A DNA stretch of 64,000 nt from Candidatus Heimdallarchaeota archaeon (GTDB taxonomy: Archaea > Asgardarchaeota > Heimdallarchaeia > Heimdallarchaeales > Heimdallarchaeaceae). The notes under the pieces are model-generated. The model was given only the letters and a program-made list of their open reading frames with translations, had not been told where the DNA came from and did not search any database. This document shows, one piece after another, positions 16,588-57,823 of this stretch. Location of the stretch: the NCBI GenBank assembly GCA_019057815.1, contig JAHLWR010000011.1, forward strand, positions 1 to 64,000, read 5' to 3'. Each line of letters begins with the position of its first letter. Within the stretch, counting starts at the first letter, position 1. Position numbers and translations under genes: made by a program.

Positions 16588-17996
16588 CCAAACACTTCAC
16601 TTGCTAGTTTTAAAGCTATCTTTAATTTCATAAGGGGAAAGATTTTCAGTCGGGGTGATATCACCTTTCCTGGATTACAGATTTTTTTGGGGTCTATGCT
16701 CTTCTTATACGCTTTGTAACTTAATAGTTGTTCATTTCCATAAATATGTTTGTAGTAACCAGAAAACCACAATCCTGTTGTATACGGGTATCCCATAAAT
16801 TTAACTGCCTTTTTCATTATCTTGTAAAACTTCATGAAAAGCATGGCTGTTTTGATACTACTGATTTCGTCTTTTTCTTTAATAAAAAAGAGAAGACTCA
16901 GTTTTTCTGGTGATATCATCGTTCCTTCTATTTGTATTTGATTATTGAAGAAAGCTTCTATCTTTTTGATGTACTTATCACTCTTGTCTATAGGGATAAC
17001 CGCTTCCCCAAACAGAAAGGTTTTTGTGTTTTTCAACAAGGAGAAAGTTCTGAATCTATGCTCCCATATATTCTTTATATATCTGTCATCTAATATTTGC
17101 CCTTTATTTTCTCTTATTGTTTGATTGAAATTAGCATAAAATTCTAATTCTTCTTCTTTGTAGTTTACTTCCTTTGATACGATAACTAAGTATCTTTCTG
17201 GTAATGTGTAATCAGATGTTGAGTTTAGAAGTGCAACTTGTTTTGGATTCATAACCCAAACAGAGAATATATCTAAATTATTCATGGATTTTAGTCCTAC
17301 AACCAATTCTTTGGCAGAATCATATGTACAAGCCTTATAACTTAAAGGTGTGTTAAATTTAACCCTTAACTTCAATTTTGTTATTATTCCTAAGGTTCCT
17401 TGAGAACCAGCAAATAGAGATAATTTGTCTTCATCTGAAAAGTTTTTTATCTCTCCTGTTGGTAGTACCACTTCTATTTCCTTAACTTGGTCTAAAGAAC
17501 CACCATATTTCAAAGCCCCAATACCAGAACCATCTTGTGCAAACCACCCTCCAATAGTACCAGAGTACAAGCTAGAAGGATATGAACAAAGAGAAAAACC
17601 TTGCATATTTAAAGAGCGTTGCAAATCAGAAAAAACATAAGGAGAAGAAACAGTAACAGATAAATCTCCAGGGTCAACAGAAAATTCCTGTTTTAAACCT
17701 TTTAAATCGACCACAACTCCTTTCTTATATGGTAAACATCCTCCAAAGCCTGAAGTTCCACCTATTCTTGGGGTTATAGGTATTTTTTCATCATTAGCAA
17801 TCTGAAAAACTTTAACTATATCATCTATTTCTTTTATTAATACAACACCATCAGGAATGTTGCTTACAACTAGTTTAGTTATTGATGGGAGAGCTACTAT
17901 ATCTCTTGAATATAATAATCGCATTATTATAGAATCTTGAAAATTTTTTCCGAAGGCTCTAGAAAATTTTGATCTAGCTATTGTTTTAAGTGTCAT
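16584..17996 (-). CDS. FAD-linked oxidoreductase (GlcD/D-lactate dehydrogenase-like)
   Basis: PRIGGTSGFGG, TIGGW, GSQGTLGIITK, DPKKICNPGK. Confidence 0.85.
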   Translation of the reverse strand: MTLKTIARSKFSRAFGKNFQDSIIMRLLYSRDIVALPSITKLVVSNIPDGVVLIKEIDDIVKVFQIANDEKIPITPRIGGTSGFGGCLPYKKGVVVDLKGLKQEFSVDPGDLSVTVSSPYVFSDLQRSLNMQGFSLCSYPSSLYSGTIGGWFAQDGSGIGALKYGGSLDQVKEIEVVLPTGEIKNFSDEDKLSLFAGSQGTLGIITKLKLRVKFNTPLSYKACTYDSAKELVVGLKSMNNLDIFSVWVMNPKQVALLNSTSDYTLPERYLVIVSKEVNYKEEELEFYANFNQTIRENKGQILDDRYIKNIWEHRFRTFSLLKNTKTFLFGEAVIPIDKSDKYIKKIEAFFNNQIQIEGTMISPEKLSLLFFIKEKDEISSIKTAMLFMKFYKIMKKAVKFMGYPYTTGLWFSGYYKHIYGNEQLLSYKAYKKSIDPKKICNPGKVISPRLKIFPLMKLKIALKLASEVFG

Positions 17997-40512: not shown

Positions 40513-41866
40513 CTTAATACATAGCAGAAATCCCCTAACTTTAGGTGGGGGATGAATGCGATAGAAACATCTATTCATCTATTACTCGTCTTTTTATAGT
40601 GAAAAAAGTACTAAGGAAATAAGGAAATGAACTGATGTTAACCTACAAAGTGCAACTGTACCCGAACAAACAGCAACAAGCAAAACTTGGTGAACAGTTG
40701 GATATTTGTAGAAAACTCTATAATAGACTACTAGAAGAGTGTAAGAAAGAACAAGAGAAGGGAGAAAAACTCACACAAATCAAAACTCAATCGTTTATAG
40801 TAGGGCTAAAAAATACTTCTATGCCCGAATTGAAAGGAGTACATTCTAAAGTTTTACAGATGGTCAACTACACTCTATGGACAAATATCAAGAGTCTATC
40901 CCAATTAAAAAAGAATGGGCATAAAATCGGTCACTTACGTTTTAAAGGAAAAGGATGGTACAAGACTATCAACTATAACCAGAGCGGTTTCAAGATAGAC
41001 GAAAACAAAAACAAACTAACCTTTTCTAAGATTGGGACTATCAATTGTAGAGGACTAAATAATAGAGTAAGAGAAAACAAAATTAAAGGGATAATACTCA
41101 AACGCACTCAAACGGGTAGATGGTTCGCGAATATACAAATAGAAAACTCTCCAGTAGTTCTTCCTAAAACCTCTAAAAGCGTAGGGATAGATGTAGGGAT
41201 AAATTCTTACGCAGTGGATTCGGATGGACGAGAGATAGAGAATCCTAAAAACATAGAAAGACAATTAAAGAAACTTAAAAATAAGCACAAATCTCTTAGT
41301 CGTAAAAAGCAAGGTTCAAAGAATTGGTTAAAAGCCAAATATCAGTTGGCTAAACTCTACACTAAAGCTGTTGACCAGCGTAAAGACTTCTTACATAAAG
41401 TCTCAAACTTTTATGTAGATAATTATGATATTATCTGTGTGGAAAACTTGAATATTAAAGGACTCACACAGAAAGGTAATAAGAAACACAAGCGGTCACG
41501 CACACTCCATCGTAACATTCTCGACGCTTCATGGGGAATATTCTTCAACTATTTATCTTATAAAGCTGTAAACGCTGATAAAGAACTAGTTAAAGTTCCA
41601 CCAAGAGGTACTACTCAAGAATGTTCCAGATGTGGAGAGATAGTTCCTAAGACATTAAATGATAGGACACACTCTTGTCCTTATTGCGACTTAGAGATAG
41701 ACCGCGACTATAACGCTTCAATAAACATTTTGAAGAGGGGTAAGGGATATGCCTCTTTACTTGTGGAGAACAGACCTCTAATCACTATCACTGCTTCTGC
41801 TTTCGTTAGTGGTCAAGTCTTTTCAATGAATCAAGAAACGCCTACCTTTAGGAAGGTGTAGTTCAT
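40513..41866 (+). mobile_element. IS200/IS605-family tnpB-only (IS1341-like) element; ends approximate
   Basis: Left hairpin atcccctaactttaggtgggggat (about 40530-53); right end gaaacgcctacctttaggaaggtgtagttcat; no tnpA. Confidence 0.85.
40635..41861 (+). CDS. tnpB: RNA-guided endonuclease TnpB
   Basis: YKVQLYP HTH, GIDVG, VENL, CSRC..CPYC, DRDYNA: RuvC D-E-D intact. Confidence 0.95.
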   Translation: MLTYKVQLYPNKQQQAKLGEQLDICRKLYNRLLEECKKEQEKGEKLTQIKTQSFIVGLKNTSMPELKGVHSKVLQMVNYTLWTNIKSLSQLKKNGHKIGHLRFKGKGWYKTINYNQSGFKIDENKNKLTFSKIGTINCRGLNNRVRENKIKGIILKRTQTGRWFANIQIENSPVVLPKTSKSVGIDVGINSYAVDSDGREIENPKNIERQLKKLKNKHKSLSRKKQGSKNWLKAKYQLAKLYTKAVDQRKDFLHKVSNFYVDNYDIICVENLNIKGLTQKGNKKHKRSRTLHRNILDASWGIFFNYLSYKAVNADKELVKVPPRGTTQECSRCGEIVPKTLNDRTHSCPYCDLEIDRDYNASINILKRGKGYASLLVENRPLITITASAFVSGQVFSMNQETPTFRKV

Positions 41867-47522: not shown

Positions 47523-48263
47523 ATGAATGATGAACACGAAACAAAAGGTCCAGGGAGACCCCGAAAATATGCAACATCAGCAGAGCGAAAACGAGCTTAT
47601 AGGGAGAGAAAAAAGGAGAGACTCGCTCAAATGCAAAAAGGTGTTGCAAGACTAGAGAAGAAGGTGAGTAAATTGGGTATAACTAAAGAAAGATCTGATA
47701 AGTTGGATTCTCTACTAAATGAAATCGAGACACCAATGGCTAAATTTGCACCTTCTGAAATCGCAGAAATGGAAAATGATGAACTCTTGGAATTGCGAGA
47801 CATCTTGAGACACTGGTTGCAGGATCATAGAGGGCTTGGAGGAATAGTGACTCAATTGAGCAATGCTATAATTCCAAGAGCGTATGCTTCCTTTGATCAA
47901 TTGGAGTTATTTGGTCCAAGACAAGAAGAAGAAGAAGGAGAGGTAAAATACATTCCCTCGATGGTCGAAACAGTGATAGACAAAAAACGTCAAAATGCAA
48001 GAGCATATTACTTTTCATCATCAAGTAACAGATATAGCAGTAGTAACCTTGCAGAACTATTCGAACAAATCACCTTGCTCTATCTTGTTGAAGCTGAGAT
48101 CGCTAAGAGACGAAGAGACAAAGTTGAAGATTTTGCTATCGTGCAGCTAGAGACTAGAATCAAGGAACTAGAATCACTGCTAGAGGATAGTGAAGAAGCT
48201 AAAACTGAACCTTACTATAGAGGGGGTGAATCAGGTGGAAAAAGAGGTGATATCAATGAGTAA
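47523..48263 (+). CDS. AT-hook + bZIP-like coiled-coil protein, paralog A
   Basis: GPGRPRK; AERKRAYRERKKERLAQMQKGVARLEKKV; second coiled coil LETRIKELESLL. Confidence 0.75.
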   Translation: MNDEHETKGPGRPRKYATSAERKRAYRERKKERLAQMQKGVARLEKKVSKLGITKERSDKLDSLLNEIETPMAKFAPSEIAEMENDELLELRDILRHWLQDHRGLGGIVTQLSNAIIPRAYASFDQLELFGPRQEEEEGEVKYIPSMVETVIDKKRQNARAYYFSSSSNRYSSSNLAELFEQITLLYLVEAEIAKRRRDKVEDFAIVQLETRIKELESLLEDSEEAKTEPYYRGGESGGKRGDINE

Positions 48264-49395
48264 GAAGAATTTAGAGTCAAAAGAAAATAAACTGAGAGGT
48301 AAACCAATCGTTCTTGAATTTGGTTCAGCATTTACAAGAATAGGATTTTCGAGTGAAGATGCACCTCGAATAGTTAAACCAACGATTGTAGGTTATAATG
48401 ATGTAGTATCAAAGAATGACAATCTTACATCGATTTTAACCGAAACTAACAAACAAGCGTTTGTTGGCATTGCAGCTATTGAGAAAAGGAAGGAACTCGA
48501 AATAGTATATCCAATTAAAAACAGAAAAATAAATGACATGCAAGCTCTTAAAGTTATGATCCAATACGCAATTGAGAGAGACTTATCAATTACACCCGAT
48601 TTGCATGCAGCAATCGTTATTCTTCCATATCCAATCAGTGAAGAGGAAAAAGAAGAAATTACTAAAATGCTTTTAGACGATCTAAATTTTCCTGGTGTAT
48701 ATGTTTCATCTAGTGAAAATATGCCCCTATACAGTATAGGAAGAACAACTGGTATAGTTGTTGATTCAGGATACGAAAAAACAGATATTATACCTATTTT
48801 AGATGGTAAAATCATCACTAAAGCTGTTAAAAGCTTAAACATAGGTGGATATCACGTTACAAACAAGCTTAGAGAATCTCTGAGAGAGCAAGATTTCACA
48901 TATACAGATGAGGAAGACAAATTCTTTGGAGCTGCAAGAAACATCAAAGAAAATCTATGCTATGTAGCTTTAAATGCGGATAAGGAAATAGAACTAGCTT
49001 CTAAAGTTTCAGGGATGAGAAAAATACACAAGCTTCCAAATGGGGAAAAATATATTGTTGAACTCCAACGTTTTTTGGCGACTGAGATCTTGTTTCAACC
49101 AGAGATGATTGATTTGAAAGAAAAACCATTGCATGAACAAATTATCGATTCGATTCAGTCTTGTGATACTAAAAACCAATCATCGTTGTGGTCTAATATT
49201 GTTATTGCAGGTGGAAATTCTATATTACCAGGATATCATGCTAGATTAAATCACGAACTAAAATCACTAGCACCTGAAAACGAAGATGTAAGAATATATT
49301 CTACACCATCAAACACTAGCTTTTCTTCATGGATAGGCGCAAGTATCCTTAGTTCTAGAATGGAGTTTAGTAAACATTGGATTACAAAAAAGTAA
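48256..49395 (+). CDS. Actin-family protein (divergent)
   Basis: IVLEFGS..TRIGF..ED.PR...PT.VG, YPIK, TGIVVDSG, IKE.LCYVA, LPNG, E.LFQP, IVIAGG, WIGASILS; SD GAGGTGA before ATG 48256. Confidence 0.95.
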   Translation: MSKKNLESKENKLRGKPIVLEFGSAFTRIGFSSEDAPRIVKPTIVGYNDVVSKNDNLTSILTETNKQAFVGIAAIEKRKELEIVYPIKNRKINDMQALKVMIQYAIERDLSITPDLHAAIVILPYPISEEEKEEITKMLLDDLNFPGVYVSSSENMPLYSIGRTTGIVVDSGYEKTDIIPILDGKIITKAVKSLNIGGYHVTNKLRESLREQDFTYTDEEDKFFGAARNIKENLCYVALNADKEIELASKVSGMRKIHKLPNGEKYIVELQRFLATEILFQPEMIDLKEKPLHEQIIDSIQSCDTKNQSSLWSNIVIAGGNSILPGYHARLNHELKSLAPENEDVRIYSTPSNTSFSSWIGASILSSRMEFSKHWITKK

Positions 49396-54749: not shown

Positions 54750-55649
54750 ATGACTGATAAGAAGAAGAAAGGACCTGGACGTCCCCGAAAACATGTTTCT
54801 TATGATGTGCCTAAAGACGAACTTGCTGCAGCTAGACAGAAAGCTTATCGTGCTCAGAAGAAAAAAAGAATTGTGGAAATCCAACGCAAGGTTGGACGAC
54901 TTGAACAGGAAGTAATAACTATGTCGAAAACTGATAAAAAAATATCGCCTGAAATGCAAGCAATACATGAAGATATTCAAGCTCCTTGGGTGAAATATAC
55001 AGAATCAGAGCTCATGGAAATGGATGATTCTCAGCTTGAACGAATAAGGGCTGTTTTAATAAATCGCTTAATGAATCCTTTTGGTAATCCGTTAACCCAA
55101 GCTTTAGAAAGGGTAATTATGCCCTCTGTTGATCGCGAATTTGATTCAAGAGGTTTAGACTTGAAGAAACCTCCCAAAGAAATAGCAGAAGAAGGGTTAT
55201 CTAAACCTGCAGAGGATGTGACACCAAAGACTGACATGCAAATAAGTCAGTATCTTGAGAGGCTTGAAGCTGAAGGTGTGGATATTTCATCTATTAAGGA
55301 TCATGTTGTTCCTTCATCAATGGAATATAGGAAAGAAGAATCACCTCTTCACTGGAAAAATGTAACAGTAGGGCACAGAATCCAGCCGCTATTTGATACT
55401 TTTCAACAGATGATTTTGCTGTATAATGTTGAAGCTGAATTATCTAGACGAAAACGAGAAATGGCATTGGATTCAGATGTTGAACAGCTCGAAAAACGTA
55501 TCGAAGAACTTGAGAAATCGCTTGTTGATGAAAGAACAAGAGAAGTAAAGAGAAGTTACGCAAGAAAGATGGAGGATTACGCAAGAAGAACGGAGAAAAA
55601 AGATATAATCAAGAAGTCTCCAAAAAAGAAGACTAAAGGTGGTGAATAA
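54750..55649 (+). CDS. AT-hook + bZIP-like coiled-coil protein, paralog B
   Basis: GPGRPRK; AARQKAYRAQKKKRIVEIQRKVGRLEQEV; F.Q..LLY.VEAE..RR.R...QLE.RI.ELE shared with paralog A. Confidence 0.75.
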   Translation: MTDKKKKGPGRPRKHVSYDVPKDELAAARQKAYRAQKKKRIVEIQRKVGRLEQEVITMSKTDKKISPEMQAIHEDIQAPWVKYTESELMEMDDSQLERIRAVLINRLMNPFGNPLTQALERVIMPSVDREFDSRGLDLKKPPKEIAEEGLSKPAEDVTPKTDMQISQYLERLEAEGVDISSIKDHVVPSSMEYRKEESPLHWKNVTVGHRIQPLFDTFQQMILLYNVEAELSRRKREMALDSDVEQLEKRIEELEKSLVDERTREVKRSYARKMEDYARRTEKKDIIKKSPKKKTKGGE

Positions 55650-55786
55650 ATGTCCGACGAAGTATACACCAAACCTATAGTCTTAGATAAACGGTACTGG
55701 CTTCACTAAAAACATTTTCGAAATTGTGGGAGACAAAGAAAGAATACCAAGAAATGGGTCCAAGTTCTGTATATAGGTGTATATAG
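55650..55786 (+). pseudogene. Internally deleted canonical Asgard actin gene
   Basis: MSDEVYTKPIVLD(+1 nt)NGTGFTKN fused to ASLKTFSKLWETKKEYQEMGPSSVYRCI-stop; T-rich terminator follows. Confidence 0.9.
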
Positions 55787-55838
55787 TTTTTTCTTTTTTT
55801 GTTTCTGAAATAAAATAAAAAAATAAAGAGAAAAAGAA

Positions 55839-57734
55839 TTACTTCTTCTTCTTTCGCTTAATTCTTAATCCTACATACATTACAGGCACAGCAAATAGAA
55901 TGTAATTTAATTCTCCATGATATTCAGAGATTATTATGATTAATGGTTCTTCAAGTGGATAAGTATCATTAGATCTTGCTGCACCATCAATTGTGTAATT
56001 TCCTAATTCACTCCAGTCTGACCAATAATTTCCTTCTAGAGTAATTGTGTCGTACCAGATGTTGTTTGTTCCTTCATCATATGCTTGACTTGAAGTTCCA
56101 CCATTTTCAGTGAAAGTGTTATGGTGAATAACGTTATTTGCTGAAGCAGAGTCCACATACAAAGCGTAAGCATAATTTGCATGAAAAATATTGTATGTTA
56201 CGTTTGTATTAGTACAACTATAGAGTATTGTTCCAGTAGCAGAACTACCTCCGGTACCAAAAGCTATTGAATTATTGGTTATGATTCCATAAGAAGTACC
56301 TTGAAATCTGCTATTATACCATGAATTTCCAAACAGAGTGTTATTTATAACTTTAAAATCTGTAACACTGTTGAGCAAATATATTCCAAATTGGTTATTA
56401 CTAGCAAAATTATCCTTAATTATTATATCATTGCTGGAAATTGCATAAATTCCACCGTAGTTTCTATTGTTACTACATGTATTGTTCTGTATGAAAATCG
56501 AAGAAGAATGTGTAAAATAGATACTTCCATAGTTATTCGCATTAAAGTCATTATTAGTTATATTAATCGAATTACAATATCGAAAAATTAAAGCTCTACT
56601 TGTATCCATAATATGAACATTCGATATACTAATGTTTGAACAATAAGCCATGATGATTTGTCCATAGAAGTCTCCAGAGATAGTTGCATCAATAAGATCT
56701 CTGAAAAATCCTAAAGGTTTGTCATTCACCGTGTTATTTTCAACATTTAGTTCATCATACACTGCTAAATCTCCTGGTGCGGAAATATCAAAACCATCTT
56801 TTGTTAATGTGTTGTTGACAATTATTGTTCGTGCAGCTAGTTCGTTGTTAATCCCTTCCCATCTGTTATAGTATAATGTATTATTGATTATGGAATTATC
56901 TGCTCCCCCTTGCAAATAGATTCCTCTACGACTATTATCATGAATGTAATTGAAATTTACAGTTGTATCAACAGAATACTTGATGTAAATTCCGTAATAT
57001 CCATTGCTGTAACATTCATTATCAATTACCTTACAATTATCTGCATTATCAACATAAATACCATATTGTGTATTGCCCCAACACATATTTTCAATCAATG
57101 TAGTATTAGCTGATTTAGTCCATATCCCGTGTTGTGTGTTAGAGTAGAACTTGTTCAAACTGAAAATTGAATGTGCTGACCCTTCAACATAAACCCCATT
57201 AGCTTGATATGCACAAGTGTTGTTTGTTACAATGGTATATGGTGAAAATTCTAAGAAAATCCCATCGGAATTATCGTTGCAGATATTTTCTGTGATATTT
57301 ACATAAGTAGTATCGCTGATTCTAATTCCATGCCCACTACCAGTACAAGTATTATTGTAAATCGTTGCTGTACCATCAGCAACATTGTCTATACAAATAC
57401 CACTGCCAAAAGCTTCTAATGTACAATTACGAATGGTAAAATATTTTGTTGTACCAGTAATATATATCCCATAATATTCAGTAGTCTCAATGTCATAATT
57501 TTCAATTATGTATGGTGATTCTGGTTCTCCTGTCCCCGAAGAACTATTTCCTGCTAAATCGTCATCATTAGTTATGTAAAGACGTTCATCTGAAGACAGA
57601 TTTTTATTTGGATAAAGATTAGCGCTAGAATCTTCAGCGGATATCTCAGTCAGAACTAATGTAATCGACGCAGTGCTAAGAAGAATCAAAATAATAATTA
57701 AAACTTTTAGATTTTTTTTAGTAATGTTTCTCAT
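55839..57734 (-). CDS. Secreted parallel beta-helix (NosD/CASH) repeat protein, paralog of 49651-52089
   Basis: GTGEPESPYIIE, NNTVNDKPLGFF, SQAYDEGTNNIWYD.ITLEGNYW; C-terminal TM + KRKKKK. Confidence 0.85.
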   Translation of the reverse strand: MRNITKKNLKVLIIILILLSTASITLVLTEISAEDSSANLYPNKNLSSDERLYITNDDDLAGNSSSGTGEPESPYIIENYDIETTEYYGIYITGTTKYFTIRNCTLEAFGSGICIDNVADGTATIYNNTCTGSGHGIRISDTTYVNITENICNDNSDGIFLEFSPYTIVTNNTCAYQANGVYVEGSAHSIFSLNKFYSNTQHGIWTKSANTTLIENMCWGNTQYGIYVDNADNCKVIDNECYSNGYYGIYIKYSVDTTVNFNYIHDNSRRGIYLQGGADNSIINNTLYYNRWEGINNELAARTIIVNNTLTKDGFDISAPGDLAVYDELNVENNTVNDKPLGFFRDLIDATISGDFYGQIIMAYCSNISISNVHIMDTSRALIFRYCNSINITNNDFNANNYGSIYFTHSSSIFIQNNTCSNNRNYGGIYAISSNDIIIKDNFASNNQFGIYLLNSVTDFKVINNTLFGNSWYNSRFQGTSYGIITNNSIAFGTGGSSATGTILYSCTNTNVTYNIFHANYAYALYVDSASANNVIHHNTFTENGGTSSQAYDEGTNNIWYDTITLEGNYWSDWSELGNYTIDGAARSNDTYPLEEPLIIIISEYHGELNYILFAVPVMYVGLRIKRKKKK

Positions 57735-57823
57735 AAAATCCCTATATAAAGAAAGTTATTTGAATATTTAATATTTTCCCGAGCAATACTCTAATTCTCT
57801 CCATTTACCATCAAGTGTAACCC

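Follow-up and report, generated by a model that had tools for sequence, protein, structure and literature searches.

The window, a 64,000-nt stretch of contig JAHLWR010000011.1 from a Candidatus Heimdallarchaeota archaeon, contains two related genes, which we call paralog A and paralog B. Paralog A is followed by an intact, divergent actin gene, and the two constitute an older sister cassette. Directly after the stop codon of paralog B, on the same strand, lie 137 nt (55650–55786) in which actin codons 1–21 are fused to the last 28 actin codons and a stop codon. This relic is separated by a short spacer from a convergent gene for a beta-helix protein, which bounds it on the downstream side (Table 1).

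Table 1. Features around the actin relic, with the intact actin genes of the genome (window positions unless a contig is named)
Feature	Position	Strand	Description
Paralog A	47523–48263	+	~30% identical to paralog B; followed by the divergent actin (cassette 47523–49395)
Divergent actin	48262–49395	+	directly after paralog A; 38% identical to the main actin
Paralog B	54750–55649	+	299 aa; GPGRPRK motif, basic region, coiled coils
Former actin ribosome-binding site and spacer	55635–55649	+	AAAGGTGG...TAA; now the last codons and stop of paralog B
Actin codons 1–13	55650–55688	+	MSDEVYTKPIVLD; ATG at 55650; first frame, soon reaching a stop
Run of three A	55689–55691	+	one A inserted, causing a frameshift; extra A not in G001
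Phosphate-1 loop codons	55690–55713	+	NGTGFTKN; second frame
Deletion junction 14-mer	55700–55713	+	GCTTCACTAAAAAC; assignable to both flanks; one copy of the former direct repeat kept
Actin C-terminal codons	55714–55786	+	(T)FSKLWETKKEYQEMGPSSVYRCI and TAG stop (55784–55786); third frame
T-rich then A-rich spacer	55787–55838	.	former actin 3' end, shared with the convergent beta-helix gene; 98% identical to G001
Beta-helix protein gene	55839–57734	-	right-handed beta-helix (NosD-like), 631 aa; convergent, bounds the relic
Main actin	contig C38: 239293–240426		intact; 378 aa
Third, longer actin homologue	contig C27: 38491–39963 (L003)		open frame of ~490 codons

Anatomy of the relic and its surroundings

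Actin sequence is spread over three reading frames of the relic. The first frame is left at the extra A, the second carries the phosphate-1 loop codons, and the third, followed from 55700 to the stop codon, reads ASLKTFSKLWETKKEYQEMGPSSVYRCI. The segment preceding the ATG could be aligned by eye with the GACCAAAGGAGGCATCTAG-TTG that precedes intact orthologs. A search of the whole genome with the Pfam Actin model (PF00022) matched positions 55691–55777 to model positions 379–407 of 410 (E = 1.1e-4), with a score of 22.3 bits that lies under the curated cut-off of 27, as expected for a fragment of 29 residues. Using the genome's main actin as query, tblastn gave 74% identity over residues 348–378 (E ~1e-10, in a small database). 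A preliminary description of this DNA had reported the bases and their readings at this position and had assigned them to the N- and C-terminal ends of an actin; all of these bases and readings are present, and both searches indicate more than a chance resemblance. A complete actin ATPase fold comprises four subdomains and ~375 residues; since only 21 + 28 codons are left here and 1001 nt are absent, we class the relic as a pseudogene and not as an actin.

We compared the locus with that of another species of the genus, represented by the metagenome-assembled genome (MAG) 'Ca. Heimdallarchaeota archaeon 8H_bin2' (BPTO01000036.1; hereafter G001). The layout is the same and so is the junction, GGCTTCACTAAAAACATTTTCGAAATTGTGG, but the extra A is lacking: where the window has GAT AAA CGG, G001 has GAT AAC GGT (GATAACGG). 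Thus the D-N-G-x-G phosphate-1 loop is in frame in G001 as LDNGTGFTKN, whereas the extra A splits it in the window. DNA identity around the locus is 89–93%, and six substitutions fall inside the relic. Because the junction is common to both species and the relic carries these substitutions, the deletion predates their split; because G001 is without the extra A, the insertion is real and specific to this genome.

Intact orthologs of the lost actin likewise have T-runs after them, and the spacer behind the relic may be an oligo-T archaeal terminator that now serves paralog B. Beyond the spacer the two species differ, as window positions 55883–57793 are missing from G001, which retains only the last ~14 beta-helix codons, joined to the equivalent of 57794 onward. 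At this junction (~17627–17634 of G001 contig C36, L035) there are a few unmatched bases, and a search for microhomology at the ends of the 1.9-kb indel in G001 gave no clear repeat. Elsewhere in the window (40635–41861) we noted a 408-aa ORF with a C-terminal CxxC...CxxC that by eye looks similar to TnpB/OrfB proteins, which are transposon-associated.

Identity of the lost gene and its pairing with paralog B

Genome-wide, the Pfam Actin model matched three intact actins and the relic, and no other actin fragment. Relocation of the missing middle to another part of the genome was rejected on this basis. The main actin has the N-terminus MEEVISNKP (MEEVISNKPLVID) and contains TKNGFAGEDQPRSVF; the peptide of a Lokiactin-specific antibody is SKNGFAGEDQPRSVF, Lokiactin being the conserved actin of Asgard archaea (PMC9834061). 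We also considered the divergent actin as the source of the relic and rejected it, since it has EFGSA instead of DNGTG and is without the EY.E.GP..YRCI tail. Paired cysteines (..CGKS.., ..CDICSG..) occur in an N-terminal extension of the third actin homologue, which may thus be an actin-like domain with a zinc ribbon attached.

In the sister genus g3, an ortholog of paralog B is followed on the same strand by an intact actin in nine genomes or loci, with the actin either 26–80 nt downstream or overlapping; the relic, starting directly after the paralog B stop, occupies the orthologous position. The linked g3 actins are preceded by a strong AAAGGAGG ribosome-binding site, and those with a 26–80-nt gap have a TTG start followed by SDELHTKP ((TTG)-SDELHTKPLVLD). 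They encode proteins of 378 aa that match the actin family in full and are 81–83% identical to the main actin of this genome, and the g3 genomes also have a main actin, 95–96% identical to the one here. Phylogenetic analysis groups the paralog-B-linked actins in a single clade (SH-aLRT 93) next to the main actins of the family. The best structure match of an intact ortholog is PDB 9wc4, 'HC1 actin' (E = 2e-188), eukaryotic actins following at ~1e-156. Two near-canonical Lokiactin-type actins are observed in several Heimdall-group genomes (g3; L038–L045 versus L060–L062).

The remaining ends of the relic were compared with both groups of actins. Its start, ATG-SDEVYTKP behind AAAGGTGG, fits the linked genes and not the main actin, both in the first residues, which follow the diagnostic pattern M-S-D-E-(L/V)-(H/Y)-T-K-P, and in the SD-like sequence. 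At the DNA level, too, the N-terminal part is closer to the linked genes, sharing up to 39/42 nt with them (in the G010 ortholog, over KP..TKN) versus at most 33/42 with main actins. The C-terminal part is uninformative on orthology, with a mean identity of 67% to linked and 69% to main actins (range 64–73%). The lost gene is a second, faster-evolving Lokiactin-type paralog, seen in genera g1 and g3, and not the canonical actin of the organism. Since the relic is found in this genus and the intact pair in g3, paralog B should already have been paired with an actin before the two genera separated, and the actin-less state would be secondary, as judged from gene distribution. The preliminary description had concluded that paralog B was once coupled to a canonical actin; the actins downstream in nine g3 genomes uphold the coupling, but the coupled gene was the second paralog.

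A Pfam search with paralogs A and B gave nothing above the cut-off. Paralog B has orthologs of 80% identity in G001 and of 38–44% identity at 15 loci of g3, and among the 40 relatives searched with these queries the family was found only in genera g1 and g3. Two motifs, the basic stretch KAYR..KK and MPS.D.EFD.R, are invariant in its members, which also have GPGRPRK in their N-terminal part and a coiled coil in their C-terminal part. The tail of paralog B in the window (..KTKGGE; 55626–55649) is translated from what in the sister genus, as seen by comparison with L006, is the actin ribosome-binding site and spacer; paralog B of G001 stops seven codons earlier, at a TAG.

Other lineages have lost the linked actin independently, and by other routes. 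On the metagenome contig Ga0114921_10022399 (L069; 550–1023), the actin after paralog B has two in-frame stops and a deletion from ~codon 128 to ~100 nt beyond the former stop. The linked actin is wholly absent from four g3 loci (L010, L012, L016 and L020) and from metagenome contig L068, homology break-points having been determined for L010, L016, L020 and L068. The ORF next to paralog B at these five loci is small, conserved and zinc-ribbon-like (..RPDAFICNNCG..TKTVCPEC..), and in intact loci (L013, L014, L060 and L021) it comes after the actin. No actin was found downstream of paralog B at g3 loci L008 and L018. A stretch of the L068 spacer behind paralog B resembled a frame-shifted actin tail by eye and was considered as a second relic; this was not upheld, because when the spacer was aligned locally, as DNA, with the relic and with an intact gene, the matches all scored low and fell elsewhere in the spacer.

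Paralog B is under purifying selection after the loss of its actin (dN/dS = 0.30 between this genome and G001), and the actin has also gone from several sister-genus lineages, as described above. We entertain only tentatively, as a rather doubtful possibility, that paralog B and its own Lokiactin-type actin were a functionally meaningful, operon-like pair, an arrangement seen twice in the genome, of which the relic would be the fossil. If so, paralog B would now act with the main actin or independently of actin, and it could be an Asgard actin-linked DNA-binding regulator, its motif being AT-hook-like, or a new kind of actin-binding factor.

Size, register and origin of the deletion

The sites corresponding to the two readings of the junction 14-mer, GFTKN and (A/S/G)SLKT, start exactly 1001 nt apart in 10/10 intact actins compared, namely the nine paralog-B-linked actins and the main actin. 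The preliminary estimate of a deletion of about 1 kb can thus be sharpened to 1001 nt in the register of the relic. Without its extra A the relic has 136 nt, and 136 + 1001 = 1137 nt, or 378 codons and a stop, which is exactly the length of the intact gene. Since 1001 = 3n + 2, the tail is expected one frame over from the head, and G001 shows precisely this +1 frame change. One 1001-bp deletion and one 1-bp insertion explain every base of the relic.

The bases at the junction can be assigned to both flanks, with one repeat copy retained: taken as the 5' site the 14-mer encodes (G)FTKN, taken as the 3' site ASLKT, in differing frames, and it occurs a single time in the 3.7-Mb genome. We looked for the repeat at both sites of intact orthologs, a check that the preliminary description had suggested, and the outcome was graded. 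In the G021 ortholog, TCACTAAAAAC stands at each of the two sites, GFTKN and SLKT, giving 11 nt exact and 12/14 in register, and this is the longest direct repeat within that gene. The two sites match at 10/14 positions in G018 and G010, and at 6–7/14 in six others. From the junction and these living orthologs we conclude that the deletion was probably guided by a direct repeat of ~11–14 nt, the ancestral length being extrapolated from present-day genes. The proposal of a microhomology-mediated deletion in the preliminary description is accordingly supported by the junction register, the 1001-nt spacing and the G021 repeat; its figure of 14 nt stands insofar as the 14-mer reads as both sites, but it is an upper bound for the microhomology, the maximum possible, and not a measured value.

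Alternatively, the gene may have been lost without guidance by a long repeat, through non-homologous joining or in several steps with little or no microhomology, so that the double reading of the 14-mer would be coincidental. In G018 and G021 the intact orthologs spell the N-site GGC TTC ACT AAA AAC, as in the 14-mer, and this on its own reads ASLKT one frame over; the double reading is therefore partly a property of the N-site alone, and the low match between the two sites in 6/9 orthologs points the same way. However, the tail of the relic begins exactly in register with its own SLKT codons, the single register-keeping position among ~1000, and the total restores exactly 1137 nt. By our own enumeration, moreover, only 2/128 synonymous spellings of GFTKN are readable as (A/G)SLKT one frame over, the C-site of G021 matches over 11 nt, and a blunt join would be expected to share <1 base by chance. 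On this balance we consider an unguided loss improbable, and retain the repeat-guided deletion as the preferred reading.

The genome is a metagenome-assembled draft in 48 contigs, and a full-length gene collapsed at a short repeat during assembly would leave a similar join. Against this, the MAG of the other species was assembled independently and has the identical junction along with its own surrounding substitutions, and the Logan contig SRR14803094_16883 is identical to the window base for base over 5591 nt, junction and extra A included, although it may stem from the reads used to assemble this genome. The tail has also decayed in a manner unlike an intact gene, with E replacing the conserved V in LWVTKK and with 64–69% DNA identity to intact orthologs versus a mean of 82% among those orthologs. 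A 14-nt repeat is also shorter than the k-mers with which assemblers usually work. A 31-mer across the junction had 0 matches in metagenome contigs and, in genome contigs, matched only G001. Assembly collapse is excluded by the G001 junction and the Logan contig, and we assign it a practically negligible chance.

We consider it very likely, with a probability of roughly 0.9, that the relic is a dead 378-codon Lokiactin-type paralog, lost by one 1001-bp repeat-guided deletion and later given an additional A. The actin paralog would have stood directly after paralog B, on the same strand and with its own ribosome-binding site, in the ancestor that this genus shares with its sister genus. As the two peptide motifs can be encoded, one frame apart, by almost identical bases, the gene would have carried a direct repeat of 11–14 nt. 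We infer that, in the ancestor of this genus, a single 1001-bp deletion joined the G-F-T-K-N codons to the (A/S)-S-L-K-T codons, with replication slippage or microhomology-mediated end joining (MMEJ) as the presumed enzymology, taking out the sequence between the copies and leaving one of them. Because 1001 = 3n + 2, the tail would have been out of frame and the gene dead at once; later, in this genome alone, one A would have been gained in the short A-run. The main actin, intact on another contig, may have made the paralog dispensable, in which case this was an ordinary gene loss.

Persistence of the relic and relation to known systems

The relic is 95.6% identical to its counterpart in G001, above paralog B (85.4%) and the upstream spacer (86.6%). 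No substitution separates the two species in its first 63 nt, all six lying in the C-terminal part, and neither the SD-like sequence nor the start codon has been lost; the N-terminal part is as close to the g3 orthologs as these are to one another, while the C-terminal part is more decayed. These features could suggest that the relic has been retained for a function, either as a translationally coupled short ORF after paralog B or as a 3' element or terminator context. Indeed, Poisson estimates set against dS, which for neighbouring genes is 0.07–0.38 between this genome and G001, hinted at functional constraint. An empirical test on the 18-kb alignment of the two genomes shows nothing unusual, however: 35% of 137-nt segments and 6% of 63-nt segments are at least as conserved as the relic. 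The short ORF at the relic encodes 19 aa here versus 41 aa in G001, and the peptides differ after codon 13 through the extra A; nor is the stop-start coupling conserved, since paralog B ends 21 nt before the ATG in G001. An Rfam search at E up to 1 placed no family on the relic, its lone, chance-level match lying outside, and the RNA fold has a z-score of only -1.3. A function of the relic is unsupported, with no significant evidence for it, and would seem to us very improbable.

The main value of the relic, read as the remnant of a deleted actin paralog, is as synteny evidence that ties the paralog A/B family to actin genes in this Heimdall-group family. Paralog B, which matches no Pfam family, was ancestrally paired with a Lokiactin-type actin, and this supports treating the paralog A/B family as actin-associated. 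Annotation based on ORFs missed the relic, and a comparison of gene content would score the locus as 'no actin'. Some Heimdall-group lineages had two near-canonical actins, the second of which was lost repeatedly by different routes, and the view that Lokiactin is strictly single and highly constrained needs qualifying accordingly.

Pseudogenes do not usually last long in prokaryotic genomes. Like unitary and paralog pseudogenes in other prokaryotes, the relic has a working homologue, gross damage (a 1001-bp deletion and a 1-bp insertion) and an intact syntenic ortholog, and with a working paralog elsewhere in the genome its parent gene was redundant. It differs in having persisted across speciation, over the dS range given above. 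The relic is an ordinary paralog pseudogene, if an unusually clean one.

Of the Lokiactin-type Asgard actin (PMC9834061) the relic has retained the DNGTG phosphate-1 loop and, at the C-terminus, SLKTF..LW..KKEY.E.GP..VYRCI, but with 333 codons missing, most of the ATPase fold among them, it is unable to make actin. Its parent gene, moreover, was a lineage-restricted second copy (g1, g3) and not the universally conserved Lokiactin.

With regard to mechanism, deletions between short direct repeats may arise by slippage or by MMEJ, the latter shown in the archaeon Haloferax volcanii (PMC5435918, PMC12281630), where MMEJ microhomologies are >2 and <50 nt and where the machinery, known from Haloferax genetics only, comprises Mre11-Rad50, Fen1, PolB and ligase (PMC12281630). 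The event at the relic differs in that it is reconstructed by comparing sequences of an uncultured Heimdall-group archaeon, with slippage and MMEJ indistinguishable, and in that the repeat stems from two unrelated motifs of one protein, one frame apart. It resembles such deletions in the single repeat copy at the junction, in the loss of the intervening sequence and in a repeat of 11–14 nt that falls inside the >2 to <50 nt range. The event is of a familiar kind, and the relic offers a natural case of such repeat-associated deletion from an Asgard archaeon not in culture.
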